Of a stretch of DNA of 39,496 nucleotides, positions 4,601 to 39,496 are shown in pieces. This DNA comes from Escherichia phage ZH4: sequence record OM355495.1; one strand, 5' to 3'. Numbering within the stretch: the stretch's first letter is position 1; every line of letters starts with the position of its first letter. The translations under genes and the position numbers were made by a program. The notes under the pieces are model-generated. The model was not told the origin of the DNA, did no database searches, and saw nothing but the letters and a program-made list of their open reading frames with translations.

Positions 4601-5998
4601 ACGTGTCCTAGGATTCAGAGGGTTCTCACCAATCAGGATTGAACCATCTTCGAGTCGTACACTACCCGGCTCGTTCGGAACGTCAGCGAACCTAACTCCT
4701 TGATGACTAAAGGTCTGCTCACCTTCCTGAATAGGGAGACGAGACAGGTCCTGACCGTCAACGTTACGGGCTGTCTCGCGAGCTTCCAGACGTGTAGCTG
4801 GACCAGCGAACTCGTTAGTGTTACGACCTAAGGCTCTGCCTAAGCCATCAGCGATAGCAGTCATACCACCACCGAAGAGAGCACCACCAAGGATAGCTTC
4901 AGCCACATGAGCGTCACCACCAGCCACTGAGGTACGGGCCATCTCAGACACACCAGCCAGTGCTCCAGTTTGAGCAGCCACGGTGAACATCTTGTTTACC
5001 AGCTTACCCCCTTTACCAACCTGTCCAGCGATAGGAACGTAGGTCAGAGGGTCTACACCAGCACCAATCACACCAGCAGCTAACTGGGCACCAGTCCCAG
5101 CCTTGGCCTTCTCTTGGTCCAACTTCTGGTTCTCAAGAGCCAAGTTAATAAGCTCGGTCAGGTTCTGAGGAGACCCGCCAGTAAGGACCCCATAATACTG
5201 AGGCAGAACCCCAGCGTTACGAATCTGGTCCAGCTCCTCGCGAGTCCACTTATGGTTGTTCCATCTGGTAGGGTTAAACACATCGCCAATGACATCCAGT
5301 GAGTCCTCGGTCTGACCAGCGCGGATAGCCACGCCGACCATAGAGTTCTTCACTTCAGCTTCTGTAGCCGAACCGAAACCGAACCATGTAGAGCGGTCCT
5401 CTCGTTCCTGCATGGTATCGCCGGTAGCCTTATAGAACATCTCACCGAACGATTCGTTGGGAGCTTCAGGTGCTTGACCCTCAATATTCAGACCAGCAGC
5501 GGTCGGAAGGTTCTCACCCAGAGCTACTTTAGGTTTAGCCTTGAGTCCTTCCGTGAGTGCGTCAAATACGTTAGCGCTTACTGGTGGAGTCTTTGGGCTA
5601 ATGCCATTGAGTGCTCGTGCGACTCCCTTCTGATAGACTTCAGGGTCGTACCGGGAGCCTGTCTCATGGAAGCTGATAGCTTGAGCCAGAGAAGACAGGG
5701 TGTCAGGGTCCGAAAGGTCGAGACTCTGGGTAGCTGGAATACCAGTTGCAGCCACCACTGAGTCAATATAAGCCTTAGTGTCGTTCTCGTTAGGAGGCGC
5801 CCATCGGTTGATAATCTTCTCGATGGAGTCATAGCCTTGGCGACCGTAACTTAATAAGTTCTTACCCAAGGCCCGCACACCAGACTCTGGGCTATCAAAT
5901 ATTACAAACTCCCCATCATCGCCAATAGCTCCTTCCCATTGGTCCTTAGACTTACGGATATTTCCGGGGTTCGAATTTCTTATACCACGTGTTGCCAT
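1610..5998 (-). CDS. Internal virion protein D (T7 gp16 homolog), 1462 aa, with non-T7 N-terminal domain
   Basis: Track ORF; central and C-terminal regions align with T7 gp16 (e.g. MENPAMFG...SIFPGSRFKGTYVPVVY, NAYMGVQNLTEIGGM). RBS GGAG upstream of ATG. N-terminus (MATRGIRNSNPGNIR...) does not resemble the T7 SLT domain. Confidence 0.9.
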   Translation of the reverse strand: MATRGIRNSNPGNIRKSKDQWEGAIGDDGEFVIFDSPESGVRALGKNLLSYGRQGYDSIEKIINRWAPPNENDTKAYIDSVVAATGIPATQSLDLSDPDTLSSLAQAISFHETGSRYDPEVYQKGVARALNGISPKTPPVSANVFDALTEGLKAKPKVALGENLPTAAGLNIEGQAPEAPNESFGEMFYKATGDTMQEREDRSTWFGFGSATEAEVKNSMVGVAIRAGQTEDSLDVIGDVFNPTRWNNHKWTREELDQIRNAGVLPQYYGVLTGGSPQNLTELINLALENQKLDQEKAKAGTGAQLAAGVIGAGVDPLTYVPIAGQVGKGGKLVNKMFTVAAQTGALAGVSEMARTSVAGGDAHVAEAILGGALFGGGMTAIADGLGRALGRNTNEFAGPATRLEARETARNVDGQDLSRLPIQEGEQTFSHQGVRFADVPNEPGSVRLEDGSILIGENPLNPRTRQVFDEVIEPERAAAGVNLGGLTEIGLKLLRSENPEIRGVAADLVRSPTGMQSGASGKIGTTASDVFERLRAVDHRFYNDIDDAVTEALKDPYFQTAFWRDNSALREDVYKRVALAIEDGSGNLKTELTPGELKVYDLLKNQFDAKREMMENPAMFGRTDAQSIFPGSRFKGTYVPVVYSSQMKQLYIKELGSPEALQEAIKKSWLTSYASRPEVKARVDEMLAEQLRSSQPAAGKTVGTAPNPRSSVNTARDQMKLDDAATQAIDKVAELKDVLTNAEKRVADREKKLQNSKDRLASHEAKLKELEEKLAAKPKSKTIPVKIESRKQMIETQKSHVRINTERLDYMKGQADKVRDRITKATTEAEAAAAAAKGQKTAVDDQAPTAGETTSGNASQAAPEVTMDMVEKYANDKAYGISHTEQFERSSVMEENINGLVGLENNNFLEARNLFDNDMEIILPNGKAFSVNSLREWDMDKIVPAYNRRVNGDIAIMAGTGKTTKDMKDLVETMMNKAGDDGKLKGEVSTLRDTLKILTGRARRDGADDAAFATVMRTMTDLSFFAKNAYMGVQNLTEIGGMLARGNVRALLHGVPIFRDLAFRNKKVGASEIKDLHNVIFGKELDDSIRPSKQDVIDRLRAYSSLSKPTATALGSAKYYTGELAVRSPFTKVLNGTTNYLLDAGRQGFLSDIVEHSLTGSKRKFDDRWLKTAGISDEQWKGIKSLIRESVTRGPDGKYTIKDKKAFSQDPRAMDLWRMGDTIADETLLRPHKLSNMDAKAYGPLAKTVLQFKNFVIKSINGRTMRTFYNATKNNRAMDAALSTVISMGLAGIYYMAQAHVKAYAMQDGRDRDYLKQALDPTMIGYAALSRSSHLGGPLGVANILGGIAGYEDTKLLRSSILPRSPTEKPERAIAYGAATSDPVMNIVGNFLEQVPAFGYAANVGASAYNLAGYLKSDTRVNERDYMTGMYNTFRELVPNDPITQKLLLGTFEEQGIHIKD

Positions 5999-9799: not shown

Positions 9800-9822
9800 A
9801 GTCCCTATAGTGATAGTTAAGG
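9800..9822 (-). promoter_or_regulatory. Phage RNAP promoter (phi13-like), minus sense CCTTAACTATCACTATAGGGAC, +1 near 9805
   Basis: Consensus match in the intergenic region between gene 12 stop (9847) and gene 13 start (9770). Confidence 0.8.
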
Positions 9823-9846
9823 TAAATCTATAGGCCATTCAATAAG

Positions 9847-12441: not shown

Positions 12442-13007
12442 TAGTCCCTCCCGATGTCAGACATCATGTTGTAGCGACCAGTGTCCATCTCGTACTCCAT
12501 AACCTGCTGATAGAGTTCTGCTTCCTGCTCACGAAGGTATAGCTCTGACTCTGGGCTACCGAAGAACTTAGCGTTGAACTCTCGGCTAGCTTTAGTGACG
12601 ATGTAGTCCCTGAAGACCACAGGCATCTCGGAGAATGGCTTCATCTCCACAAGCTCTACCGTGATAGGGTCGGTGAAAGTGGTTGACTGAGTGGACAGGT
12701 CGTACAGGTATCCACCCATGTTGCTGTAGTAGCTGGTGGCCCCAGCAGTCATTATCCGAAGGTATGACGGAAGGAATCGAATCCTATTGTCTTGGACATC
12801 AGGTGTCAGGACAGCAGCTTCGTTGATGTTAAAGTTCCAGCCTTTAGCTTGGACCTGACGATTGACACGATGTAGGATACGTTGAGCGTTCGAGACGTCA
12901 GCGTTCCCCTCGTCAAGCTGTAGGACTGCTGGTTCACCGATAGCAGCTAACATATCGTTGATGGCATCTAAGTCATCGTTAGCATTCAGTGGAATGTATT
13001 GAGCCAT
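12441..13007 (-). CDS. Tail tubular protein A (T7 gp11 homolog), 188 aa
   Basis: Similarity to T7 gp11 (AIGEPAV..., NAQRILHRVNRQVQAKGWNFNI, YIVTKASREFN, MEYEMD.G.YNM); RBS AGGAG. Confidence 0.9.
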   Translation of the reverse strand: MAQYIPLNANDDLDAINDMLAAIGEPAVLQLDEGNADVSNAQRILHRVNRQVQAKGWNFNINEAAVLTPDVQDNRIRFLPSYLRIMTAGATSYYSNMGGYLYDLSTQSTTFTDPITVELVEMKPFSEMPVVFRDYIVTKASREFNAKFFGSPESELYLREQEAELYQQVMEYEMDTGRYNMMSDIGRD

Positions 13008-13026
13008 AAGTCTCCTCTCACTTTAA

Positions 13027-15366: not shown

Positions 15367-16930
15367 CTTGCGCCATGTCCTCACCAGCTCCCTGACCTAC
15401 AGCAGCGCCCATGTTAGCACCAGCAGCAGACGCACCGTTGACCACAGCTCCTTGAGCGGATTGTTCAGCAATACGTTGCATCTTCTCGTCCTGAGTCAGC
15501 AGAAGACCAGCAGTGTCAATGCCTAAGGCATTCAGCAGTCGCAGCTTCAGGGTCGGCAAGTTGATGTCTGGATCCTGAGAGAGCTGCTGAAGACCAGTCA
15601 TCATGTTGACTGCCTGAGTCAGCTTCTCCAAGTCCTGGCCACGGCCCAGAGCTTCCAGACCAGTTGAGACCGTAGGCTCTACCGCTTCTTTCGGAAGGTC
15701 AGGAATCATGCCAGCAGACTGAAGCTGGTTCATCAACACACGGACGATAGGTAACTGAAGCTCTTGTGACTGTACTGAGTACACGCCACCTAAGGTCGCC
15801 TCCAGTTCGCCAGCAACATAACGAATCTCTTCAGCAGTGACTCGCTCAGCATTACGCTGAACAGCACTATTAAGAAGGAAGGCCCAGCCTAAACGTTGCT
15901 CGATAGCGTCAGCCACCGACTTGGCAATCGTAAAGTCCTGACCCTTCGTCAGTTGCAGGAAGTTGATGTCCTCAACGCGACCAGCCACGAACTCACCTGT
16001 AGCCGCCTTGTTCAGACGTCGAGGTTGCGTGATACCGTTCGGGTTAACGAGGCCCACCACCTTGGAGGCTACCTTAGCCATTTTGGTGATAGCTTCTGTA
16101 ATCGTCTCCAGCGAGTTCAGGTCTCCAAGATACTCCTCGCAGTAAGAACGACCATAGTCTTCACCATCCAGTCGAACCATTCGTACCGGGATGTACGGAC
16201 ATGCAGTCAGTGGATAAGAACCATCGGTCCCTGTTACCTCAATGCCTTCCACTTCCTCGTAGCGTAGATACTCGTCGTCCTGACGGTAGATGTGCGTATA
16301 CACTTCCAACTCGGTGTCAGGCTCATAGTCGTCTGCGTTGAGTTGAGACTTCACGTCTTCCGGTAGAGCACTAAACGCTACCTTGTCGAGAGTCACAATC
16401 TGCAAGATGTTACCGAAAGCATCACGTTGAACAACGTAGGACGTTAAGCGATACATACGCATCGGGCTGTAAGTTCCCTGTTCAGGCTCTGGAATGTAGA
16501 GAAGACAGTTACCGGAGACGATAAGCTGCTTCAGAGCTTCGAACAGTGGCACACGGAAACTGTTTGTCTCCATGTAGGCCATCAACACACGCTCGACCAT
16601 AGCCAACCCTTCGTCAACACGAGCAGCAGCCTCTGAGTCCTGACTCAAGGTCTTGGCCTCATATTCGGAGACTGTCAGTCGCATCCACGGTGACTGAGGA
16701 AATAATGCCAACATCAGCTTTGCAGCCAAGTTGTTCAAACAGCGAGCACCTACAGCTTGCCACGGAGTCGTGTATTCCGTAGACGAGTTGTCGGACTCCT
16801 TAGGAAATAGTGACGGGATAGTGACAGCAGCACAGTTCTGAGCTCGCGTCTCATATGGCTGTCTACCGTTCTTCAGTCGGTCATAGACCGCTTTGGCTCC
16901 TTCAGCAGCGAACCCTTCACGTTCAGCCAT
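15362..16930 (-). CDS. Portal (head-to-tail connector) protein (T7 gp8 homolog), 522 aa
   Basis: Strong similarity to T7 gp8 (YETRAQNCA, TPWQAVGAR.LNNLA.KLMLALFP, YRLSSYVVQRDAFGN, CPYIPVRMVRLDGE.YGRSY.EEYLGDL); RBS AGGAGG. Confidence 0.97.
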   Translation of the reverse strand: MAEREGFAAEGAKAVYDRLKNGRQPYETRAQNCAAVTIPSLFPKESDNSSTEYTTPWQAVGARCLNNLAAKLMLALFPQSPWMRLTVSEYEAKTLSQDSEAAARVDEGLAMVERVLMAYMETNSFRVPLFEALKQLIVSGNCLLYIPEPEQGTYSPMRMYRLTSYVVQRDAFGNILQIVTLDKVAFSALPEDVKSQLNADDYEPDTELEVYTHIYRQDDEYLRYEEVEGIEVTGTDGSYPLTACPYIPVRMVRLDGEDYGRSYCEEYLGDLNSLETITEAITKMAKVASKVVGLVNPNGITQPRRLNKAATGEFVAGRVEDINFLQLTKGQDFTIAKSVADAIEQRLGWAFLLNSAVQRNAERVTAEEIRYVAGELEATLGGVYSVQSQELQLPIVRVLMNQLQSAGMIPDLPKEAVEPTVSTGLEALGRGQDLEKLTQAVNMMTGLQQLSQDPDINLPTLKLRLLNALGIDTAGLLLTQDEKMQRIAEQSAQGAVVNGASAAGANMGAAVGQGAGEDMAQA

Positions 16931-16941
16931 TAGTCACCTCC

Positions 16942-17196
16942 TTAAATAGAAATACCGCCACCAGAAGTGCGAGAGACCTGAAGGCTACGCTTACCGGAAC
17001 GCTTCACTTTCTTCCCGTCAGATGCAGTCACTTCGGTATCCACATCTTCAACTTTTTCGGTCGGGACTTCCACTGGTGCTGCTGGTGCTGGGGTCTGAGC
17101 CTCAACAACCTTAGGTGCATCATTAGCTCCAAGACCAACGGTCCCTAGCGTACTTTTCACCACTTTCTTGAATGCCTTGCTGATTGATTTACCCAC
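16942..17196 (-). CDS. Tail protein (T7 gp7.3 homolog), 84 aa; probable GTG start
   Basis: MGKSISKAFKKV... and C-terminal SRTSGGGISI versus T7 gp7.3 (MGKKVKKAVKKV...ARSSGGGINI); RBS AGGAG. Confidence 0.8.
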   Translation of the reverse strand: MGKSISKAFKKVVKSTLGTVGLGANDAPKVVEAQTPAPAAPVEVPTEKVEDVDTEVTASDGKKVKRSGKRSLQVSRTSGGGISI

Positions 17197-17593
17197 GATT
17201 AATCTCCTTAATTGTTACGATGTCTACCGACCCTGAAACATGCTTGACACGAGAATACCAGCTAAGACCCCAACGCTTGCACTCTTCGTCTATGATGTGC
17301 CTGACAGTCTCAAGAACCTTGCGGGAGGACTGCGAGTCACGACGAATAGCGACGATTGAAAGGTCAATACCGGGAGTCGGTCGGTGCCAAGATGCGGTAG
17401 CCAGCATGTAGAGATACGCTACTGGTTGACCTGATACATCGTAGATTGTGTATTCTTCACCGTCGAACTCGTCAGCCATACGGTAGGTATGAGCCTTGAA
17501 GTCCTCGAATGACTTGAAGTTAGACTGCCCGTCTTCCCAGAGGCGACAAGCGCACATGTGGCGACCTTCGCGTGAGTTGAGATATGGTAGCAT
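17189..17593 (-). CDS. T7 gp7-position protein (virion/host-range protein), 134 aa
   Basis: Track ORF between genes 6.7 and 7.3; assignment is positional, with size similar to T7 gp7. Confidence 0.55.
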   Translation of the reverse strand: MLPYLNSREGRHMCACRLWEDGQSNFKSFEDFKAHTYRMADEFDGEEYTIYDVSGQPVAYLYMLATASWHRPTPGIDLSIVAIRRDSQSSRKVLETVRHIIDEECKRWGLSWYSRVKHVSGSVDIVTIKEINRG

Positions 17594-18170: not shown

Positions 18171-18193
18171 AGTCCCTATAGTGATAGTTTAGT
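18171..18193 (-). promoter_or_regulatory. Phage RNAP promoter (phi6.5-like), minus sense CTAAACTATCACTATAGGGACT, +1 near 18176
   Basis: Consensus copy between exonuclease stop and gene 6.5 start; likely start of late (class III) transcription. Confidence 0.85.
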
Positions 18194-18318
18194 GTTTCAC
18201 CTATGGATGACTGTGGATTGATAGGATATGACTATCGGCTAGACTCAGTGTTTAGGCCGGTTGTTCGACCCGAACCACTTGTACATGCAGTAAAGGGCCA
18301 GAAGTCCGACCCAGTAAA

Positions 18319-19188
18319 TTACATGGATGGTGTCCACAGGATGACCTCCTTGGACTTAGGGTCATAGTCGGAGGCTCGACAAATACGAGCGACCTGAGCT
18401 TGGACCAGAAGTTCCTCCTCGGTCATCCCAGCTTTAGCAGCCAGAGTCACCATACAGTCCCAAAGCGTCATGTCTTCACGCTTAGGATACTTCTTCCACT
18501 CAGTCTTAATCTGGCCTTTGTTCTTACCAGTCTTAAGCTCACGGCTCTCCTGCACGAAGTAGTACGGCTCGTCAAGGAACGCACGAGTGGTGTCCTCACC
18601 CATCCCCGGAATACCGCCGTAGCCATCTGTAGTGTCACCCTTGATGGTCTGCTCCATGTGCCAGTAGTCTGCCTCGGCAGTCGTATGACTCAGGATTTCA
18701 CCAGTGGTTAACCAGAAGAACTCACAGTTCGGGATGGTCTTGAAGTCCTTATCGCAGGACACCAGCACCGCATGGTCACATCCAACAATCTGAGGTCTGG
18801 TCCCGATGATACCCATACAGTCATCACCCTCAAGCGTAGGATGCAGGAAGCTGTTGAACCGTGGGTCAGCCATCACTTCGGCTACGAACTTCTTGTAACC
18901 TACAGGCTTTCGAGAACCTTTACGGTTGGCCTTATAGGTAGGAAGAACGTCCTTACGCCAGTTGTTATCATCAGTAAAGCACATCACAATCTTAGCGTCT
19001 TTCCACGCCTTGCGCTTCTTAACGATTTCAGCGATGGTGTTCTCAAGGATACGACGAGCCTTCTCATGATCGCAGATAAGGGTCCAGATGTCATCGCCCC
19101 AATCTGTCTCGTCCTCGGCAGCAGCCATAGAAGAGTAGACCAGATAGTCACCATCCAGAACCAGAGCTATCTTCTTATTCGAAGTCAT
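18319..19188 (-). CDS. 5'-3' exonuclease (T7 gp6 homolog), about 289 aa from ATG at 19188
   Basis: Similarity to T7 gp6 (CDHEKARRILE, ANRK..RKPVGY, LEGDD.MG, CDKDFKTIPNC, TIKGDTTDGYGGI, KSGKNKGQ, TLWDC, AKAGMTEE). RBS AGGAGG precedes MTSNKK; the track ORF begins upstream at a non-ATG codon. Confidence 0.93.
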   Translation of the reverse strand: MTSNKKIALVLDGDYLVYSSMAAAEDETDWGDDIWTLICDHEKARRILENTIAEIVKKRKAWKDAKIVMCFTDDNNWRKDVLPTYKANRKGSRKPVGYKKFVAEVMADPRFNSFLHPTLEGDDCMGIIGTRPQIVGCDHAVLVSCDKDFKTIPNCEFFWLTTGEILSHTTAEADYWHMEQTIKGDTTDGYGGIPGMGEDTTRAFLDEPYYFVQESRELKTGKNKGQIKTEWKKYPKREDMTLWDCMVTLAAKAGMTEEELLVQAQVARICRASDYDPKSKEVILWTPSM

Positions 19189-22069: not shown

Positions 22070-22089
22070 GGTTAATCCTCCGTTTAGTC

Positions 22090-22130
22090 TAATCATAAAG
22101 GCCACTCGATGTGAATGACCTTGAGTCTAG
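22090..22130 (-). repeat. Conserved 43-bp element copy 1 (plus sense TAATCATAAAGGCCAC...ATGACCTTGAGTCTA); putative RNase III processing hairpin upstream of gene 5
   Basis: One of three near-identical copies (also 29734..29776, 38021..38064). In RNA sense AAGGUCAU can pair with GUGGCCUU around a loop. Intergenic. Confidence 0.5.
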
Positions 22131-22132
22131 AC

Positions 22133-22333
22133 CTAGAAGTCTGTACGCAAGAAGTGATACATAAACTTCCGGTTAGCTTTCTTCCATGCCTTAGAGTCGA
22201 ACCTCTGGTCTCCCAGAATGTTGGACAGGCAGGTTGCTTCATCGCTCCACAATTTGTACATGAACCGATGGTAGCGAGCTTTAAGTTTCTTAAACACTAA
22301 TGGTGTCCTCCGTACGGTGACTTCCAGTCGCAC
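22133..22333 (-). CDS. Hypothetical protein, 66 aa (between primase/helicase and DNA polymerase)
   Basis: Track ORF filling the gene 4-5 intergenic gap (T7 has genes 4.3-4.7 here); basic protein; start codon uncertain. Confidence 0.45.
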   Translation of the reverse strand: MRLEVTVRRTPLVFKKLKARYHRFMYKLWSDEATCLSNILGDQRFDSKAWKKANRKFMYHFLRTDF

Positions 22334-24052: not shown

Positions 24053-24099
24053 TCACTCCTTAATCACAAATGCGAACAAAGGGACAGGACTAATTGTCC

Positions 24100-24122
24100 A
24101 ATCCCTAAGGTGATAGTTTAGG
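24100..24122 (-). promoter_or_regulatory. Variant phage RNAP promoter upstream of gene 4 (minus sense CTAAACTATCACCTTAGGGAT)
   Basis: Matches the consensus except -3/-2 (CT instead of TA); located between the 71-aa ORF stop and the gene 4 start. Probably weaker. Confidence 0.55.
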
Positions 24123-24333
24123 CTTTGAAGAACTGAGCCAACTGTTCAGCTTTGGTGTCAGCTTGACGTGCTTTCATGCCAGCTTCCAGTGACGCGATGG
24201 TCAGCTTGTCAGCCAGAGCAGCAGCATCAGCCGCACCATCAGCAGTCTTCTTTTCTACCTTTCGCTCCAGTACCGCAGCACGACGATAACCACGAACCAC
24301 CAGACGACCAAGAAATTCGATAAGTTTAATCAT
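24118..24333 (-). CDS. Hypothetical protein, 71 aa (between genes 3.5 and 4)
   Basis: Track ORF; alanine/lysine-rich predicted helical protein; no confident homolog recognised. Confidence 0.5.
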   Translation of the reverse strand: MIKLIEFLGRLVVRGYRRAAVLERKVEKKTADGAADAAALADKLTIASLEAGMKARQADTKAEQLAQFFKA

Positions 24334-28157: not shown

Positions 28158-28167
28158 TGACGTTTAG

Positions 28168-29250
28168 TTAACTCTTAACTGTTGGGTTATCTTCCGTTCC
28201 ACGCCAGCACTTGAAGCTAGGGTGACGAAGGGAGCCATCCGGGAACCGCTCCATGAAGAGTACTTCACACTGCCAGCCTTCGTATGGGTTGTCGAAGCAT
28301 GGTTCGTTGCCTCCTATGCCATAAGGAGCGAAGATGCCGACCGCAGCCAGCGTATCCTCTTTAACCTTAGTAGTGAACTCTTCCTTCTGTCCTTCAGTCA
28401 GACCGCAAGCATTAACTACCATGCCATCCTCAAGTAGAACCTCGAAGCCAATCACCTTACCTTCGTTGGCCTTACCCGGAGTCCCCCACACGAGGCCACA
28501 CACGGTCCCGTCGATGGTCTCCTCAGGCTTCATCTTCCACATTCCTGACTTCTTGCCACGCTTGTATTTACCCAGCGGGTCCTTGACTACCAGACCCTCG
28601 TGTCCTTCCAGACGCTTCTCTTCGTACAGGGAGTTGAGCGACTCAAGGTCATAGACCGTGTGTGACTCAGACAGAACCCAGTCGATTTCAGGGAAGTATT
28701 TCTGGAGGAGAGGGACGATAGCTTCGGCCTTCAGGCGTGTGACGCTATGGATAGGACCTTCGGCTTTCGGGTCAGCAATGGTTGTCATGTCGATGACACC
28801 GTAGACCACAACCTTAAGTCGTGACCGGGCTACCCAGAACGGGACCTTATTTCCGCGTCCAGGATAACATTCAGCGTAGTGCTCATTGCTTGGCTTAAGC
28901 CACTTGGTTCGAATGAGACCTGAGGAGGTGTTGAAGTCCACACCTTTAACCATGACCTCGCCATCGATCATCAGGCCCACACCTTCGTATCCAGCTTGAC
29001 GCAGGAACCATCGCCAGTCAGCTTGGGTCCACGCATTACCTAGCTCAGAGTTCATCCACTCCAAGGCAGGAAGAGGTTTCGACTCACGGCTTAACCAATA
29101 TGTCTCACCTTCTCGCAGCACCGGAAGGTTCAACCTGACACCATCGTACTTCACTTCAGCTTCTAGAGACCCGGCAGCAGATAGTGCCTTCTTAATACCA
29201 GACTCAGAGTAATCTACAGCGCGGTGCGGGTTGGTTTTGATAGTTGTCAT
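28168..29250 (-). CDS. ATP-dependent DNA ligase (T7 gp1.3 homolog), about 360 aa from ATG at 29250
   Basis: KTNP..AV, EVKYDGVR, DGE.MVKGVDFNTSSGL.RTKW, EGHEGLVVKDP...YKRGKKSG.WKMKPE, GKVIGFEVLLE, SLRHPSF conserved with T7 ligase, including the active-site lysine motif. RBS GGAG before MTTIKTNP. Confidence 0.95.
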   Translation of the reverse strand: MTTIKTNPHRAVDYSESGIKKALSAAGSLEAEVKYDGVRLNLPVLREGETYWLSRESKPLPALEWMNSELGNAWTQADWRWFLRQAGYEGVGLMIDGEVMVKGVDFNTSSGLIRTKWLKPSNEHYAECYPGRGNKVPFWVARSRLKVVVYGVIDMTTIADPKAEGPIHSVTRLKAEAIVPLLQKYFPEIDWVLSESHTVYDLESLNSLYEEKRLEGHEGLVVKDPLGKYKRGKKSGMWKMKPEETIDGTVCGLVWGTPGKANEGKVIGFEVLLEDGMVVNACGLTEGQKEEFTTKVKEDTLAAVGIFAPYGIGGNEPCFDNPYEGWQCEVLFMERFPDGSLRHPSFKCWRGTEDNPTVKS

Positions 29251-29517: not shown

Positions 29518-29697
29518 TTATGCTCCTACGAAGTATTTCTCTTGGTTGACCATAGAGTCTTTACCTTCAGCATTACGGAAAGCACCCTTGACACCACCGC
29601 CACGCTTGGTCTTGTTCAGCTTGCGGCCCTTCGGAATGTAATCTTCAGTCTGCTGACGTTCACGGATTCGCTCGAAGTTGATAGTGTTCTGATACAT
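29518..29697 (-). CDS. gp1.1 homolog, 59 aa
   Basis: Own translation MYQNTINFERIRERQQTEDYIPKGRKLNKTKRGGGVKGAFRNAEGKDSMVNQEKYFVGA; KGRKLNKTKR matches T7 gp1.1. Below the track 60-aa cutoff. Confidence 0.7.
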   Translation of the reverse strand: MYQNTINFERIRERQQTEDYIPKGRKLNKTKRGGGVKGAFRNAEGKDSMVNQEKYFVGA

Positions 29698-29733
29698 GTG
29701 GTTTAATCTCCAGTAGTTTACGTTATGTTAGGG

Positions 29734-29776
29734 TTAATCATGAAGGCCACGACTTTGAGTCATGACCTTGAGTCTA
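29734..29776 (-). repeat. Conserved 43-bp element copy 2 (putative RNase III site, R1.1 position) between the phi1.1 promoter and gene 1.1
   Basis: Plus sense TTAATCATGAAGGCCAC...ATGACCTTGAGTCTAA; lies in the 5' leader of the phi1.1 transcript, matching the T7 R1.1 location. Confidence 0.55.
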
Positions 29777-29797
29777 ATCCTATAGTGATAGTTTAGG
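29775..29797 (-). promoter_or_regulatory. Phage RNAP promoter (phi1.1-like), minus sense CTAAACTATCACTATAGGATTAG, +1 near 29780
   Basis: Consensus copy upstream of genes 1.1-1.3. Confidence 0.8.
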
Positions 29798-29872
29798 GTT
29801 AACCTCTTCTGCGTTGGATTAAAGTGAATACTGCTAGTGCTCCCAGCCAAAAGGCCAGTAACTGTAGGTCTG

Positions 29873-30085: not shown

Positions 30086-32767
30086 TTAAGCGAATGCAAA
30101 GTCTGAAGACAAGATGTCTTCGATATTCAGTTTACCTTTCTTCGGAAGCTCAGGCAACTTGTCGCGCTGGCTCTCATGAAGCTGGTATTCGAACTGCTCG
30201 TAGAAGTCAAGCAGCACATCGTTGTCGCGGTAGGTCTCAACCATTGTCTCACGGACTCCACGGAACAGATACTCAGCGTCAGCCGGGATGGTCCCGAAGC
30301 TATCGTGAATCACTGCGAATGACATCACACCATACTTGCGGTGCGTGTGGACTACAGTCTTGCGGAGGTGGCTACCATCTTGTGAGTGGACGAAGTTCGG
30401 GCTGATGCCTGACTCCTGCTTGTGCTTGTCCAGCTCTTTCTTCGTGCCTTTGTTGACTGTAGGCTGAAGGTTGAACGACCCTAAGAACATCAGGTTCAGA
30501 CGAGTGGTATCCTTCTTGCGGTATTCCTGCCAGACCGGGAAACCATCAGGTGTGACCCAGTGTACCGGAAGGCAAGGCTTCAGGATTTCTCCAGTCTTCT
30601 TGTCTTTCACTTCAGCAGCCAGCAGCTTGGCAGCACCTTGAAGCCACTTCATCGCGTCAACCGCAGCAACTACGGTCACACTCACAGCTTCCCAAATCAT
30701 CTTAGCCATGAAGCGAGACGCTTGGCTTGGCTCGGTGAACATAGCGCCAGACCCTGAGTCAATCGCTGGCATCACGATGTCTTCGTACACTTGGTCTGCG
30801 AAGCCATACTCTTTCGACCCGTAGGCCAGAGTCATTACTGAACGCTTAGTGACCTTGCGTGACATACCGTAGGTCAGCCACTGACGGGCCAGCTCTCGTG
30901 TCCCCAGCTTGAGACGTTCGGTAATCTCACCAGTTTTCTTGTCCTCGTGAGTTACCATCTCGTTGTCCGTACCGTTAACCAGCATTACTTTAAGCTCCTC
31001 CTCGATGCGATCAGACACGATGCGGTAGATGTCTTGTACCTTCCCGGAAGGCGTCAGGTTTACTGCATGTCCACCGATGTGGTCACGAAGCATCGCGCTG
31101 AAGTGCTGAATCCCAGAGCATGACCCATCGAACGCTATCGGTAGCGAACAAGAGTAAGACAATCCGTGGTGCATTACTCCAGCATACTCGAAGCAGAACG
31201 CAAGGAAGCAGAAAGGAGAGTCTAGCTTGCCCCACCACTCAATGTTATCCATCGGTGCCTTAGCGGTAGCCATGATGTTGTCGTGATTGTCTTCCACCCA
31301 CTTGATGCGCTCCTCGAAGGTGACTTTATCGACGCCAGCACAGTTTGCACCATGGACCTTCAGCCATTTGAAACCATCAGCGCCAATAGGCTTGCCGACT
31401 GCAAGAGTCAGGAGACCCTTCTGCATGTCGTTACCCTGAGGGTTGAACATCGGGACAGCGTAGACACGACCCCGCCAGTCCATGTTGTACGGGAACCAGA
31501 TGGCCTTGAACTGAGAGAACTTGTTCGCTTGGTTAACGATAAAGCTCAGTGACAATCTGCGTGACTGTCTGGCCTTCTCGCGGCGATAGATACCAGCAGC
31601 AGCCTTCTTCCATGCCTTGAGTTCCTCCTCTGTCTCACCCGCATAGTCCTCAGGCTTCAGTGGTTCCATCTGAGGGATGTCGTCAATAGGCGTGTTGTTC
31701 AGCTTCTCGACCATGTTCACCACGTCCAGAACCTTCTTGTTCACTTTCCAAGGTGTATTCTGAATGATGTTCACAGCGTCATAGACTTCAGGCATGTACA
31801 CGTCTTCGTAACGTGCTACCGCAGACTTAGACCCTAAGCGAATCAATGGTAACGGTCTGCGACCTTTGGCCCAGTACCCACCGCCTACGACACCAGTCCA
31901 CGGCTTAGGTGGAACGACGCAAGGTTGATAGACTGGTGCGATACCCGCAAGGCTAAATCCACGTTGTGCCATCTTCTTTACCCAGAAGTCTGACAGGTGG
32001 ACCATCTCAACGTCAGCCGCTGCATTGCCAGCACCATAACGCTTAAGCTCGACCAGTTGAGTAGACTGGATGACAATCTCAAGCATCTTGATGCCAACGT
32101 GTACCGCCTCGGTCGGACTCCAAGTACCCCACGCATCTTCCAGTTGACCTTGCTCCAGCATGGAGGTCTCAACCGCTTGCATGTAGGCTTTCTTATAGGA
32201 TACCCCGGCTCGCTTGTTCAGGTTCTCAGCTATCGCCTTCTTGAAGTGCTCCTGCTCCTTGTCCCGAATGCGACCGAAGCGGATTTCATCTTCGAGTGTA
32301 CGGCCTATCGCTGAGGCCATCGGTGTAATCGGTATCCCTTCAGGCTTTACCAGCTTGGAGAGTATGACCTTCAGTATGATGACCGCAGCAGACTCGCAAG
32401 AGATACGCAGAGAGCGGTCCTTGACGGCCTTCCCTTCAGTGCTCAACATGGTGAACGCTACGCTAGGACGAGAGGTTGACAGCTTCCCGTCTGGGCCTTC
32501 GTGCCACTCCTTGACGGCTTGCGCAATCTTAGGGACCAGAGTCTGCATCAAAGGCTTGGCTACCTGATTGTCTGCCAGTTCTCCGCGCTCAGTCTGTCGC
32601 TCAAGGTTCTTAATGAAACGTCGCTCGCCTTCAGTGTATGCCTCATGCTCGAGCTGAAGTTGTTTTACTGCAAGGTCTTGCCCGTAGTGGTCGGCCAGCA
32701 GGTTAAACGGCTCAATAGCGTTCGACACATCAGAGAAGTCGTGTTTATCGATAGAGATGACGCTCAT
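30086..32767 (-). CDS. Single-subunit DNA-dependent RNA polymerase (T7 gp1 homolog), 893 aa
   Basis: Collinear with T7 RNAP over the whole length (DFSD...PFN.LADHYG, FQPCVVPPKPWTG..GGGYWA.GRRPL, WFPYNMDWRGRVYAV.MFNPQGNDM.KGLLTLA.GKPIG, DGSCSGIQHFSAMLRD, SVMTLAYGSKE.GF, HDSFGTIPADA, C-terminal FAFA). Specificity-loop region reads QPTVNKGTKK where T7 has QPTINTNKDS. Confidence 0.98.
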   Translation of the reverse strand: MSVISIDKHDFSDVSNAIEPFNLLADHYGQDLAVKQLQLEHEAYTEGERRFIKNLERQTERGELADNQVAKPLMQTLVPKIAQAVKEWHEGPDGKLSTSRPSVAFTMLSTEGKAVKDRSLRISCESAAVIILKVILSKLVKPEGIPITPMASAIGRTLEDEIRFGRIRDKEQEHFKKAIAENLNKRAGVSYKKAYMQAVETSMLEQGQLEDAWGTWSPTEAVHVGIKMLEIVIQSTQLVELKRYGAGNAAADVEMVHLSDFWVKKMAQRGFSLAGIAPVYQPCVVPPKPWTGVVGGGYWAKGRRPLPLIRLGSKSAVARYEDVYMPEVYDAVNIIQNTPWKVNKKVLDVVNMVEKLNNTPIDDIPQMEPLKPEDYAGETEEELKAWKKAAAGIYRREKARQSRRLSLSFIVNQANKFSQFKAIWFPYNMDWRGRVYAVPMFNPQGNDMQKGLLTLAVGKPIGADGFKWLKVHGANCAGVDKVTFEERIKWVEDNHDNIMATAKAPMDNIEWWGKLDSPFCFLAFCFEYAGVMHHGLSYSCSLPIAFDGSCSGIQHFSAMLRDHIGGHAVNLTPSGKVQDIYRIVSDRIEEELKVMLVNGTDNEMVTHEDKKTGEITERLKLGTRELARQWLTYGMSRKVTKRSVMTLAYGSKEYGFADQVYEDIVMPAIDSGSGAMFTEPSQASRFMAKMIWEAVSVTVVAAVDAMKWLQGAAKLLAAEVKDKKTGEILKPCLPVHWVTPDGFPVWQEYRKKDTTRLNLMFLGSFNLQPTVNKGTKKELDKHKQESGISPNFVHSQDGSHLRKTVVHTHRKYGVMSFAVIHDSFGTIPADAEYLFRGVRETMVETYRDNDVLLDFYEQFEYQLHESQRDKLPELPKKGKLNIEDILSSDFAFA

Positions 32768-32836
32768 ACTTAAAGTCCTTGTTATTAGTCTTTCACTTAA
32801 AGTCTCTTTGGTCTTTCACTTGGAGTCTTAGACCTT

Positions 32837-32859
32837 GAGTCCTATAGTGATAGTTAAGT
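32837..32859 (-). promoter_or_regulatory. Phage RNAP promoter directly upstream of the RNAP gene (minus sense CTTAACTATCACTATAGGACTC, +1 near 32842)
   Basis: Near-perfect consensus copy about 75 nt upstream of the gene 1 ATG; the leader contains tandem AAGUGAAAGAC repeats and an AAGGA RBS. Confidence 0.7.
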
Positions 32860-32864
32860 CAGAA

Positions 32865-33125
32865 TTACTTGAATATCAGCGGGTTAGCGTGAAGATGACT
32901 GAAGTCACCGTGAGTCGTGTGCTTGATTGTTGACCGTTGGTCTATCGCCTTCCAGCCTGAGACCAGAAGTTTACCATCGTCTGTGCTTGGTCGTCCACCA
33001 TACACCAGACACATCAGCTCGGACTTATGGCCCTCTGCTATCATGCGGCGCTGTAGGAACATATCGCGCTGTACTTGCTCCATGCGGCTACGGCTTGATG
33101 ATTTATTAGTGTATACGGTTTTCAT
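32865..33125 (-). CDS. Hypothetical early protein, 86 aa
   Basis: Track ORF in the early region between the Ocr and RNAP genes; no recognisable motifs; T7 has genes 0.4-0.7 here. Confidence 0.45.
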   Translation of the reverse strand: MKTVYTNKSSSRSRMEQVQRDMFLQRRMIAEGHKSELMCLVYGGRPSTDDGKLLVSGWKAIDQRSTIKHTTHGDFSHLHANPLIFK

Positions 33126-33328
33126 TACAGTTTACTCCCAAGTGTTGCTATATCCCAGACGTTCGCTAAGTTGCGCATGAATCGTCCATTAGGTTGACGC
33201 ACAGTCCAGCGACCCAGACGTGCATAGTTGAATTTATAGACTTTGCGTGCCTTGTTGATGTCTCTCACCAGCACGTAGGCGATAAGTCCATAGCCTATAA
33301 CTATCAATACTGCGATACCCATAGTCAT
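33125..33328 (-). CDS. Small membrane protein, 67 aa (early region)
   Basis: Track ORF; N-terminal hydrophobic helix GIAVLIVIGYGLIAYVLV followed by a basic segment; ATGA overlap with the preceding small ORF. Confidence 0.5.
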   Translation of the reverse strand: MTMGIAVLIVIGYGLIAYVLVRDINKARKVYKFNYARLGRWTVRQPNGRFMRNLANVWDIATLGSKL

Positions 33329-33429
33329 ATACCCCAGAACAGTTGAGTCAGGACCGGAAGTTTACCGACCAGCGTGAATACTCCCCACGCTACGAATCCA
33401 GATGCAGTCCAAATGATTGCAGTGCTCAT
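33325..33429 (-). CDS. Small hydrophobic peptide, 34 aa (early region)
   Basis: Own translation MSTAIIWTASGFVAWGVFTLVGKLPVLTQLFWGI with RBS AGGAG 6 nt upstream; translationally coupled to the next ORF. Below track cutoff. Confidence 0.35.
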   Translation of the reverse strand: MSTAIIWTASGFVAWGVFTLVGKLPVLTQLFWGI

Positions 33430-33496
33430 AGTTAGCTCCTATCAATTTAAGTGGTAATCTTTGAGGCCACCTATCATTTAGATGACCTCTCGTCTA

Positions 33497-33646
33497 TCAC
33501 TCAGTGTGCGAACTGTCGTACATGCTATTGCGGACCTCATAGACCACTTTCAAGAGACGCATAGCCGCATCGTGGTTTAACTGCCCAGTCTTGACCATAA
33601 TCCGGGCGTAGGTGACGTGGTGCTGGCAGAGACCATAAGTTACCAT
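33497..33646 (-). CDS. Small ORF, 49 aa, translationally coupled to Ocr (TAATG overlap)
   Basis: Own translation [49 protein letters not shown]; no RBS evaluated; low confidence. Confidence 0.3.
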   Translation of the reverse strand: MVTYGLCQHHVTYARIMVKTGQLNHDAAMRLLKVVYEVRNSMYDSSHTE

Positions 33647-34152
33647 TACTCGCAGTCCTCGTCAGCCGCAGGGTCGAACACTACGTTATCGTCGATGTCT
33701 TCGACTTTCAGGTGGCGACCTATCACATAGTGATCCTTGGCACATGCAGTAGCGACCTCAAGAGACACAGCTTGCTCAATGAGTACACCTGTCTTAGCGT
33801 CGACTACCCAATACTCATCCTCCTCGTCGCTCTCTTCAGCCTCAAACCATACCACATCCGAGCTATTAGACACGTCGTTATAAAGCGCCTCATAGATGCG
33901 AGCTTGCAGTATACGCGTTACGTCCTTGGTCTCAGGCATCAGCCCAGAGTCCTCAAACTCATGGTCTATACCATCAGCAGCCATCACCGTAAAAATCTCG
34001 TGGTAATAGTGCGGAACCTGACCGTCTACGACTTCATGCAGCGCATCGTGGTAGTCATCGCTTTCAGCTATTTCGTCGTACTGAATACGCTCGTTAAATG
34101 CTTTAACGGTTGCGGCCAGCAGCTCATAGTATGCGTTAGCGTTACGTTCCAT
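33646..34152 (-). CDS. ocr: Ocr-like DNA-mimic anti-restriction protein (T7 gp0.3 homolog) with a C-terminal extension, 168 aa
   Basis: [66 protein letters not shown] matches T7 Ocr ([66 protein letters not shown]). First gene after the host promoters. About 50 extra C-terminal residues beyond the acidic tail. Confidence 0.9.
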
Positions 34153-34345
34153 AGTTATATCCTCTCAAAGTTGTTTGTGTATGTTAGTGACTATCAGTCA
34201 GGGCCTTCAGATGTAGACTCAAAGACCCTGTAGTTAGTCGCTATCGGCGCACATTAAGAGTTTATCCAGATTATTAAAGAGCATTCGCGTTGGCTGTCGT
34301 CGCCGTGCTATCCCGTTTCAGTGTTGGGACTCACCGTTGTTTCGA

Positions 34346-34530: not shown

Positions 34531-34779
34531 CTACTTTCTGTCATCTGCCTGTTTTTCGTATGACTTATCAGGCTGTCTACTTGACCGGGATGACCCGGCG
34601 TCTTCACTATCCGGTTGTTGCCGTGTCGTGTTGACGGAAGCTATTAAGCCACAATCTAGGACTGTAGTCAATAGTTAATTTGAAATAATATTGATTAAGC
34701 TATCGTCGGCCCATGGTGACTAAGATGATATAGTCTTTGACTAACATGTCTTTGACCTTAAGTCTATATCTTTATGTCT

Positions 34780-35756: not shown

Positions 35757-37520
35757 CTAGTGGAACGTAACGTAGGACCCTAGTCCCAGCTCGTCGTCTG
35801 TATCGTGAGTTACCCTGACCCCATTGTCCCAGAACTCAGTGTGTATTGACTCGAAGCCTTTCCGTGGGTTCTCCATCTGTTCCTCAAGCCACTCCTCAGT
35901 GACTTCACGTTCTCCTTTGTTGGCATCCTTAGCCATGGACTCAACGAAGAACTGTACACCGATAGCCAGCGCATCAAGTCGGTCATCATGTGCCAAGGCT
36001 CCACGTTCACGAGATATACGTGTCATCTGGTAGAAGAGAGAGTAGATAGGGTTACGAACACCATCCTTATCAGCGGCTGACTGGTAGTCTTGGACGATAG
36101 CAGCAGCGTTAACGATAAGTCTGTGAGACCCCATGATAGGCTCCAGAACGTCACAGATGCGGAGTTCTTTCTGACCCTTACTCTTCACTTCAGTTACAGC
36201 AGCAGGATGGATACGGGCCGCTACAGGCTTGAATAACTCAAGGTACATACCATCACCGAAGTTACCCTCAATGACGTATTCGTTGACCTTCCACTTACGA
36301 CCAATCTTAGCCAAGGCTTCCAGCGTAGAGTCTTCATAACCACCACGCATGCCACCAACTTCCATAGCGAAGATGTAGCCGTTGAGTTGATACAGTACCG
36401 CATAACCAGTTTCATCCTTACCACGACCACTAGGGTCAATGACCAGAATCTTCTGGGTGTATGAGCTGAACGCAGAACCTACAGTCTGATACGTGTGGTA
36501 CGAGTCACCCATGAGTCCAACGTTAGGAACGTCCTCACGCTTGTTCTGAGGGTTCGGCAACCATTGGTAGACCATTGGACTGGACGCTGGGTCCAAGTCT
36601 GCTACGATAAGGTCACGGAGCTTCAGAGGGTACTTCTCTGCATCACTCAGGTTCGGGTTAAGCATGAACTGTAGAGCGAAGCCAGCTTTACCGTAAGATA
36701 ACTCACGTTCCTTAAGGTCCGTATCATCGAAGCGTACTTCATCAGTCGGACGCCAGTAGAAGGACTCAGGGTCCTCTTCCAGCTCTGCTTGAAGCATAGG
36801 AGCCAGACGGTCGCCGTAAGACTGCCAGTCCTTCCTGTCGCGTGGATAACGAGCCGGCCAGATAGTAGTGGTATACCCACGACCTTCAAGCTCACGATAC
36901 AGGGTCATCTCGTTCTGAGGAGTACCCAGATAGATTATTGTACCTCCAGGCTTAAGGATAGCGTCGAACTCTTTCACAAGCTCTGACAGACGGTCTCGCG
37001 CAGCCTGAGTAGCAGAGTTGTTAGGAACCTCCACGTCATCGGCAATCAGGATGTCAGCACGACTACCAGTCAACTGACCAGTGATACCAACGGACTTAAC
37101 AGAAGGTGAGTGGTCTGGCTTGGCTGGCCCAACGTCGAAGCTAATAACCGCATCTCGCTGTCCCTGCTTAGGTTTGAGTTCCTGAAGCTGAGGCATTAGG
37201 TCGATGATTCGCTTGATGAAGATGGAGTTAGCATCAGCTCGTTCCTTTGAGGCCGACACAATCATGAACTTCAAGTCTGGGTTGTTCCATAGTTTCCAGA
37301 CCACGAAGGCACACGTAATGAAGGACTTCCCGATACCACGGAACGCCTGTAGGATGAAACGCCTGTTGTCCCCAGCGGAGAGCTTACGAGCCATATCTAT
37401 CTGGCATCTAGTCGGGACTGGTAGTGACAGAGCTTTCCACAGGACGAACAGGAAGAACACGAAGTCTGCCTTCATACGGGCAGTCATTAGCGCCTGACGC
37501 GCCACTAAGTCTTTACTCAA
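35757..37520 (-). CDS. Terminase large subunit / DNA maturase B (T7 gp19 homolog), 587 aa
   Basis: Near-identical blocks with T7 gp19 ([167 protein letters not shown]). Confidence 0.98.
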
Positions 37521-37966: not shown

Positions 37967-38020
37967 AGTTGCCCTCCCGGTTTATCAGATTTCACGTAGA
38001 GTCTCCTCCACTAGTTAGTG

Positions 38021-38064
38021 TTAACCATAAAGGCCACTACACATAGTAATGACCTTGAGTCTAA
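38021..38064 (-). repeat. Conserved 43-bp element copy 3 (putative RNase III site, R18.5 position) between small terminase and the Rz-like gene
   Basis: Plus sense TTAACCATAAAGGCCAC...AATGACCTTGAGTCTAA; same element as 22090..22130 and 29734..29776. Confidence 0.55.
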
Positions 38065-38067
38065 CAC

Positions 38068-38331
38068 TTATTGAACGCCATACCCGGTGTCATTATCCTC
38101 AGTCGCTGAAAGCACCTTATCGTACTCTGCGTTCAGGGCCTCCATATCAGCGAGCGTCTTCTCGTCAACAGACACCTTGCTTAGCACGAAGTTGTGACGA
38201 GCCAGTAGCTTCTCAATGGCGTTGTAAAGCTGAGGTGAACGCTTAGAGTCATCCCGCAGGTCTTGCAGCATGAGTCGAGCACGTTCAGTATCTAGCATTA
38301 AGAGGAACTTCTCTAAGTCCATCTGCGTCAT
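38068..38331 (-). CDS. Terminase small subunit / DNA maturase A (T7 gp18 homolog), 87 aa
   Basis: LLMLDTERARLMLQDL...RSPQLYNAIEKLLARHNF is consistent with the T7 gp18 N-terminal region; position between holin and Rz. Confidence 0.8.
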   Translation of the reverse strand: MTQMDLEKFLLMLDTERARLMLQDLRDDSKRSPQLYNAIEKLLARHNFVLSKVSVDEKTLADMEALNAEYDKVLSATEDNDTGYGVQ

Positions 38332-38657: not shown

Positions 38658-39496
38658 TTAATTTGATATTTGTTTCCAGTCAGAACTAGTCAACCCGTGT
38701 GACTTCCACCATGAGTTAGCGCTGTCACTCCATACTTCTTGCCCTATAAAGCGAGGAATTACTGTAGCTACAGGAGTAGGGCCGGATACAACTTGATACC
38801 CATACTTAGCTGGTCCTATAGCATTGTTCAAGATAAAATCTTTAGTTATTCCTCTTGCGCCATTAAACCACTCTAGATCCGTACCGCTAATACCGCTAAT
38901 AAACTCAGGTGAAAACTTAGTGAAACTGCAGCCAGCGTTCACTCGTGCCCCGTTGTAAGCGCTATATCCACTAGCCTGCGTGTTGCTCCAGCGACCACCA
39001 ACCACACTACCGTTGCTGCAATTTAAGAAGTACGCAGCATATCTAGCGAAACCTTCCAGGTTAACGTTTACAAGCTCAAATCCTGATGCACCATTGCACT
39101 GGATGCCATCATTGTTCGGTACACCACTTGTTGCTATTTGTGGGTTAGAGGCATACCCAGTTAAATTTGCACCATTAATAAAAATGCCGGTATTGGTATT
39201 CGCACCAAAGTATATACCAACTCCAGAGCAGTTCTGAACACTCAGGTTATTGATACGAATACCACTGGCATAGTTGAAACTGATAGCTCGTTCAGCCGCA
39301 CGCACACTCCTGTACCCAAAACCAATATCACGAAGGCGTATGTTACTCATAGTGATGTTAGCTGGGTTCATGCCTTGTGTTTCCGATTCAAACCCTTCAA
39401 ACGTTATTCCATTGCCACAGTTTGTAGCTATGACATTATCCACAACAATGTCAGCAACATAGCGTTTGAATCCCATAGCTCCATGAGCACAGTCCC
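38658..39496 (-). CDS. Tail fiber / tailspike (gene 17), C-terminal part with right-handed beta-helix (pectate-lyase-like) domain; continues upstream across the window junction (39370..39496 duplicates 1..127)
   Basis: Track ORF 38658..39476 is in frame with the minus-strand ORF from 1544. Repeated beta-helix-like rungs ([48 protein letters not shown]) typical of phage tailspike depolymerases. Confidence 0.85.
   Translation of the reverse strand, partial: DCAHGAMGFKRYVADIVVDNVIATNCGNGITFEGFESETQGMNPANITMSNIRLRDIGFGYRSVRAAERAISFNYASGIRINNLSVQNCSGVGIYFGANTNTGIFINGANLTGYASNPQIATSGVPNNDGIQCNGASGFELVNVNLEGFARYAAYFLNCSNGSVVGGRWSNTQASGYSAYNGARVNAGCSFTKFSPEFISGISGTDLEWFNGARGITKDFILNNAIGPAKYGYQVVSGPTPVATVIPRFIGQEVWSDSANSWWKSHGLTSSDWKQISN
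39370..39496. repeat. 127-bp exact duplicate of window positions 1..127 (circular-assembly overlap, lies inside gene 17)
   Basis: Direct comparison of the window ends; ORF-track coordinates confirm an offset of 39,369. Confidence 0.9.

Follow-up and report, generated by a model that had tools for sequence, protein, structure and literature searches.

Genome setting and fold of the repeated elements

The window analyzed here is the whole 39,496-nt stretch of record OM355495.1 (Escherichia phage ZH4), which is the complete genome, about 39.4 kb, of a Kayfunavirus (K1F-like, T7 family, Studiervirinae) in a circularly permuted assembly. All long open reading frames (ORFs) are carried on the minus strand and follow the T7 gene order. 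A megablast search with 15 kb of the window matched 822 phage records, the best matches being Escherichia, Hafnia and Salmonella phages of the genus Kayfunavirus with 92–94% identity. One further record, MT350292.1 ("Enterococcus phage EFA-1", host Enterococcus faecalis), was 99% identical over 501 bases that run from upstream of gene 5 into that gene; as the genus is otherwise found on Enterobacteria, this is unexpected, and the record may have a mislabelled host or represent a contaminant. Positions 1–127 recur as an exact 127-base repeat at 39370–39496, inside the tail-fibre gene (gene 17), and this end repeat resembles an assembler overlap on a circularised contig, not a phage terminal repeat. 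The true genome ends should fall between gene 19.5 (~35300) and the early promoters (~34700). A phage promoter repeat (RNA sense ...AACTATCACTATAGGA), the core of which differs from the T7 promoter sequence, is scattered over the window in 11 copies. Directly after the DNA ligase gene lies a strong intrinsic terminator (28158–28131, minus strand) with a 12-bp stem, a UUCG loop and a U-rich TCTTTGCTTT tail, in the position of the early terminator TE of T7 and T3.

Elements of the form TAATCATAAAGGCCAC...ATGACCTTGAGTCTA on the plus strand were located at 22090–22129, 29734–29776 and 38021–38064, which in RNA sense (minus strand) read AGACUCAAGGUCAU-loop-GUGGCCUUUAUGAUUA. The first-pass annotation had listed all three at these positions, with the end of the first set one base too far, at 22130. 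Genes neighbouring the elements discussed below were identified by PHROG searches as ocr, the gene 1.2 dGTPase inhibitor, DNA polymerase, the small terminase and an Rz-like spanin. A repeat finder aligned 29727–29777 with 38014–38064 at 82% over 51 nt and grouped the copies of the ATGACCTTGAGTCTA arm as a single family. The 11-mer GACCTTGAGTC occurs exactly on the plus strand at 22117, 29764, 32831 and 38051, and the number of exact matches to the core in RNA sense, four, compares with 0.02–0.11 expected under Markov models of order 1–4. When up to one mismatch was allowed, 17 matches to GACCTTGAGTC were counted over both strands against 1.0 expected, and none of 100 shuffled sequences reached 17.

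Each of the three copies folds into a lower stem, an internal loop, an upper stem and a terminal loop, with free energies of -20 to -23 kcal/mol and z-scores of -3.4 to -3.5. The arms AAGGUCAU and GUGGCCUU pair over 8 bp, two of them G-U, and the reading of these arms as partners around a variable loop was thus borne out. The upper stem is conserved and 10–12 bp long (AAGGUCAU.../...GUGGCCUU), the lower stem has about 9 bp and a variable sequence, and between them is an asymmetric internal loop whose 5' strand is ACUC and whose 3' strand is UAUGA. Minimum free energy and centroid folds gave the same shape as T7 R0.5, R1.1, R4.7 and R18.5 folded alongside. Since the variable flanks make the lower stem, the structured unit is longer than the repeat core; what had been described as a 43-bp hairpin element does fold as a hairpin, within a unit of about 59–61 nt (22080–22138, 29725–29785 and 38012–38072). 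The copies had also been called intergenic, and they do lie between cistrons, with the qualification that the 5' arm of each lower stem overlaps the stop codon of the preceding ORF. In two of the three copies the antisense fold was much weaker. The conserved U-G pairs become A-C mismatches in the antisense strand, which places the structure in the sense RNA. A search of the whole window, both strands, against Rfam matched no family at the gathering threshold, which does not count against a reading as RNase III sites because Rfam evidently holds no model for sites of this kind.

Correspondence with the RNase III sites of T7 and T3

Seven RNase III sites of T7 (R0.3, R0.5, R1, R1.1, R1.3, R4.7 and R18.5) were reportedly given with their cleavage coordinates by Dunn and Studier in 1983. 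The coordinates used here are those attributed to that work; the T7 RefSeq table does not carry them. They place the cut in the same register, ...CCUUUAU/G (the slash marking the cut), in R0.3, R0.5, R1.1, R4.7 and R18.5, and the register of R1 (AAU/AGG) agrees by alignment; six of the seven sites are hence concordant, with R1.3 uncounted. This common register supports the coordinates. The T7 sites share the consensus ACUCAAGGUC-loop-GGCCUUUAUGAUU, with two helices and an asymmetric internal loop, on the same strand as in the window. A ACUCAAGG...GGCCUU motif is common to R0.3, R0.5, R1.1, R1.3, R4.7 and R18.5 and is carried by the three copies in the window, whereas R1 has a diverged form (UUACAGGUC...GGCCUG).

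A covariance model was built from the seven T7 sites alone and the window was scanned with filters off. Five matches were obtained, all on the coding strand, with E-values from 5e-11 to 1e-4; the next best match had an E-value of 0.7. Where the first-pass annotation had counted three copies, the family thus has at least five members, the model adding 33445–33505 and 34181–34246. For validation the same model was applied to T3, whose RefSeq record (NC_003298) lists ten stem-loops under the label "RNase III recognition site". Eight of the ten were recovered (R0.3, R0.5, R1, R1.1, R1.3, R4.7, R6.5 and R18.5), with no extra match at E<1. The model also finds T7 R6.5, which was outside the training set. 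In both phages it places the entire phi6.5 promoter within the loop of R6.5 (T7 18499–18578; T3 17132–17210) while keeping a canonical two-arm alignment, and the complete R6.5 hairpin would be present in read-through transcripts only and not in those started at phi6.5.

The strongest match in the window (22080–22138, minus strand; 54.6 bits, E 4.7e-11) lies directly upstream of gene 5, which encodes DNA polymerase and starts with ATG at ~22072. It folds at -22 kcal/mol with a z-score of -3.54. The arms of this copy, ACUCAAGGUCAUUC and GAGUGGCCUUUAUGAUU, match T7 R1.1 without a mismatch, for 14 nt in the 5' arm and 17 nt in the 3' arm, so that the two differ in the loop alone. The first-pass annotation had placed this copy upstream of gene 5, which is correct, and we assign it to R4.7 on the basis of the T3 layout, in which the R4.7 stem-loop (12970–13018) ends 25 nt before gene 5 (13043). 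In T7, by contrast, gene 4.7 intervenes before gene 5; in the window the copy abuts gene 5 with neither gene 4.7 nor a promoter between. Orthologues are present in 25 related loci. The hairpin ends 12 nt ahead of the Shine-Dalgarno sequence. From the T7 motif register a single cut is predicted after the U at 22095 (GGCCUUUAU/GAUUAG), and this would leave gene 5 with a leader of about 22 nt containing the GGAGGA Shine-Dalgarno sequence.

The copy at 29725–29785 (minus strand; 46.3 bits, E 5.7e-9; -20.2 kcal/mol, z -3.46) starts at +1 of a phage RNA polymerase promoter, the phi1.1 equivalent (29778–29800, minus strand; 96% identical to the reference promoter copy), the first transcribed bases forming the 5' lower-stem arm of the hairpin. 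It precedes an ORF of 59 aa in the gene 1.1 position (29518–29697) and gene 1.2. The same layout of promoter and site is found at phi1.1A/R1.1 of T7 and phi1.1/R1.1 of T3, and the earlier identification of this copy with R1.1 holds. The T7 register predicts a cut after the U at 29740 (GGCCUUCAU/GAUUAA). The third copy (38012–38072, minus strand; 52.6 bits, E 1.5e-10; -23.4 kcal/mol, z -3.43) lies between gene 18, the small terminase, and gene 18.5, the Rz-like spanin, and the UAA stop codon of gene 18 is inside its 5' lower-stem arm. R18.5 of T3 likewise overlaps the end of gene 18 ahead of 18.5, in agreement with the first assignment of this copy to R18.5, and orthologues of this type were found in terminase loci of relatives. 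Here the predicted cut, again in the T7 register, would follow the U at 38027 (GGCCUUUAU/GGUUAA).

The two additional matches are diverged family members in the early region. An R0.5-like copy (33445–33505, minus strand; 31.6 bits, E 3e-5; -21.3 kcal/mol, z -3.68) lies downstream of ocr (0.3) and a short 0.4-like ORF and has an equivalent in K1F at 1764–1823; its predicted cut in the T7 register falls after the A at 33460 (GGCCUCAAA/GAUUAC). An R0.3-like copy (34181–34246, minus strand; 29.4 bits, E 1.1e-4; -22.4 kcal/mol, z -2.17) lies downstream of the host-type early promoters and about 29 nt upstream of the ocr start (34152), with a cut predicted in that register after the U at 34196. The internal loops of these copies read CAAAG and GACUG where T7 has UAUGA. 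Because they are diverged (29–32 bits) and their internal loops differ from those of T7, their reactivity is less certain. The five sites of the window correspond in synteny to R0.3, R0.5, R1.1, R4.7 and R18.5 of T3 and T7, the matched intercistronic positions of T7 including those before genes 0.3, 1.1 and 18.5 and that after the 0.3/0.4 block. T7 has seven to eight canonical copies and the window five, equivalents of R1, R1.3 and R6.5 being undetected in the window by the T7-only model.

A sixth hairpin, GGGAUUGGACAAUUAGUCCUGUCCC followed by UUUGUUCGC (24078–24105, minus strand), is found immediately after the phage promoter at 24103–24125 and upstream of gene 4. In T3 the equivalent position is annotated as RNase III recognition site R3.8, and there too a short hairpin with a CCCUUUGUUC tail immediately follows the phi3.8 promoter; in an alignment with phi3.8/R3.8 of T7 and T3 this tail is invariant. 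The fold (-18.7 kcal/mol, z -2.88) is like that of R3.8 in both phages. The canonical covariance model does not cover this type; the hairpin is probably an R3.8-type RNase III site.

Other occurrences of the core did not qualify. The first-pass annotation had described a shorter core next to a promoter at 32831 and in the terminal region. The former is an exact match; the latter, at 34754, has one mismatch, and neither is a complete hairpin. The GACUCAAGGUC core at 32831–32841, considered as an R1 site, has no conserved 3' partner, an upper stem of 5 bp, a z-score of -1.0 and no model match, and was rejected. It directly follows the promoter upstream of gene 1, and its 5' half is conserved in relatives. 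The copy at 34754 scored 10.5 bits (E 6) with a fold z-score of -0.37 and was not accepted as a site. No R6.5 equivalent of the promoter-in-loop kind was found within the window, and R6.5- or R13-type hairpins sought after the promoters at 18174–18196 and 9803–9825 gave no significant structure (z -0.78 and +0.80, respectively). The ten annotated T3 sites include R1, R1.3, R6.5 and R13, for which the window gave no equivalent. In mRNA sense, the reverse complement of the core (GACCUUGAGUC) occurs inside genes seven times within one mismatch, against 0.5–1.3 expected from Markov models; 16642–16652 and 28640–28650 are exact and the other five have one mismatch. The copy in the ligase gene codes for a conserved Y-D-L-E-S peptide, and in relatives it changes along with the protein. 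It was rejected as an RNA partner and is probably a product of coding or chance.

Conservation and covariation in relatives

K1F (NC_007456) has matches at 12851–12909 (before gene 5), 5564–5624 (R1.1) and 36444–36504 (R18.5), and these are nearly base-for-base identical to the three copies of the window. In the K1F RefSeq record no RNase III sites are annotated, and a literature search for RNase III sites in K1F, Kayfunavirus and phiYeO3-12 found none, the K1F genome paper lying outside its coverage. In total K1F gave six model matches. The number of RNase III-type hairpins in the early region varies among close relatives, with two in the window, three in K1F and four in L067.

For a wider survey, 224 loci centred on genes for DNA polymerase, RNA polymerase or the large terminase were fetched from IMG/VR without reference to the motif. 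The T7-only model gave 26 matches in the DNA polymerase loci, 215 in the RNA polymerase loci and 20 in the large terminase loci, and all 261 were on the coding strand. They occur in Kayfunavirus, in the T7 and T3 groups and in a large group with 58–59% RNA polymerase identity. Within the 224-locus set, no matches were obtained in loci with DNA polymerase at or below 40% identity or terminase at or below about 60%. In relatives with an extra ORF or a T7-like organisation, the match lies 400–900 nt upstream of gene 5.

Pairing was kept in 92.2%, 93.3% and 94.7% of cells in three alignments fitted to the model, against 21–52% with slid partners, and double changes were counted at 11, 13 and 17 of 19 pairs; most of them fall in the lower stem or at the top of the upper stem. 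Since such counts lean towards the model to which the alignments were fitted, a plain MAFFT alignment was run as well. Its 23 sequences were sites of the window, K1F, T3 and T7. From this alignment RNAalifold, working de novo, arrived at both helices and the internal loop once more, and 9 of 15 pairs showed compensatory changes. Folding and covariation analysis, which the first-pass annotation had proposed as a check, point the same way: the two-helix structure is conserved, with compensatory changes both in relatives and in the 23-site alignment.

Probable processing signals in polycistronic phage mRNA

The first-pass annotation had proposed that the copies are RNase III processing sites of the T7 type. 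Scores of 46–55 bits on the T7-only model and the covariation described above support this for the three copies, with cleavage argued from homology. The elements share their structure with the T7 and T3 sites, are homologous to them, are specific to one strand and occupy syntenic positions. We consider it very likely that the elements are T7-type RNase III processing signals in polycistronic phage mRNAs. They are orthologues of a long-known, textbook class of T7/T3 signal and involve no new mechanism.

Cleavage, the exact position of the cut and the effects on stability and translation are here modelled on T7 biochemistry. Bacterial RNase III requires approximately two helical turns. The lower and upper stems, when stacked, would provide about this length, and the host double-strand-specific RNase III would be expected to bind the stacked helix. 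The internal loop would then limit the enzyme to one bond on the 3' side (...CCUUUAU/GAUU...), leaving the upstream mRNA with a 3' hairpin resistant to 3'-to-5' exonucleases, and the downstream mRNA would start with a short defined leader just before its ribosome-binding site. Internal loops have been described as confining RNase III to a single phosphodiester and leaving protective 3' hairpins, and base-pair rules for RNase III antideterminants have been published (PMC1540722). In the gene 5 copy, the identity to T7 R1.1 in both arms extends to the proximal and distal recognition boxes. T7 is able to grow on hosts without RNase III (PMC6938266), and the sites are for this reason probably not essential.

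Stable G+C-containing hairpins in intercistronic positions, with three U residues after the upper stem (CCUUUAU), could also be read as signals at which the host or phage RNA polymerase terminates or pauses. A scan for terminator-like sequences picked up none of the five elements, though it found the terminator at 28158–28131; they were missed because the full hairpin has no U-rich tail. Intrinsic termination makes no use of an asymmetric internal loop or a lower stem, yet here the loop is conserved and the stem covaries. One copy begins at promoter +1, where termination would defeat the promoter. In T7 the homologues are known to be cleaved and are not terminators (PMC6938266, PMC1540722). 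We regard this explanation as highly improbable. Several near-identical 40-nt copies spread over one small genome might instead suggest a dispersed repeat whose function lies in the DNA itself; it could be a hotspot of recombination, bind a protein, take part in replication or be left over from a small mobile element, and the RNA fold would be incidental. The primary replication origin of T3 does lie near the phi1.05/phi1.1 region. Against this, the flanks that form the lower stem differ between copies while pairing is kept via double substitutions, the conserved G-U pairs function in sense RNA only, and every one of the 261 matches in relatives is on the transcribed strand. The same syntenic positions are also occupied in genera whose RNA polymerases are 58–64% identical, which is unlike recent mobility, and very little credence can be given to a DNA-level role.

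It is, further, very unlikely that these are RNA elements whose main role lies elsewhere, as a translational operator or as a target of RNase E or RNase G, with RNase III uninvolved. The gene 5 copy is near a Shine-Dalgarno sequence and could affect ribosome access, and ZH4 has no gp0.7 kinase, which couples T7 to RNase III. RNase III processing in T7 is, however, known to affect translation, and such effects are not an alternative to it. The arms that carry the T7 R1.1 recognition boxes are identical in the gene 5 copy. The hosts of the relatives, moreover, are E. coli and other Enterobacteria, and theirs is the RNase III that was characterised on R1.1 (PMC1540722).

The early region of ZH4 has features of its own. 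In this region (32865–34152) the ORF list and PHROG searches showed no gene 0.7 (protein kinase/host shut-off) between ocr and gene 1; the ORFs in that interval are all small and of unknown function (PHROGs 2385 and 7066). In T7, the gene 0.7 kinase stimulates RNase III. Because the ZH4 genome is without this kinase, the efficiency of processing may differ from that in T7. The varying number of early hairpins together with the absence of gene 0.7 points to a mosaic early region. A full phage-type promoter is present at 32840–32862 (minus strand), about 75 nt upstream of gene 1 (30086–32767), and is conserved in Kayfunavirus relatives, whereas T7 and T3 have no phage promoter annotated upstream of gene 1. 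Such a promoter would let the RNA polymerase transcribe its own gene, in a positive feedback. Its transcript begins with the conserved 5' half-site GGACUCAAGGUC, and repeated AGUGAAAGAC and GACUUUAAGU motifs were observed in the gene 1 leader. As a long shot, Kayfunaviruses might have an RNase III programme that is reduced and rewired, with five canonical sites and one of the R3.8 type, neither gp0.7 nor a canonical R1, and a promoter before the RNA polymerase gene whose half-site would pair with a partner elsewhere or serve as a decoy regulating the polymerase mRNA.

Reading the elements as T7-type RNase III processing signals has value for annotation, since records of K1F-like genomes leave such sites unmarked. 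Recovery of eight of the ten T3 sites by the T7-only model with no extras makes automatic annotation feasible across the Studiervirinae. K1F-like phages are candidates for therapy against K1-capsulated E. coli, and the sites would define the ends and leaders of mature mRNAs, for example that of the DNA polymerase gene, which is of relevance to phage engineering and to models of phage gene expression.
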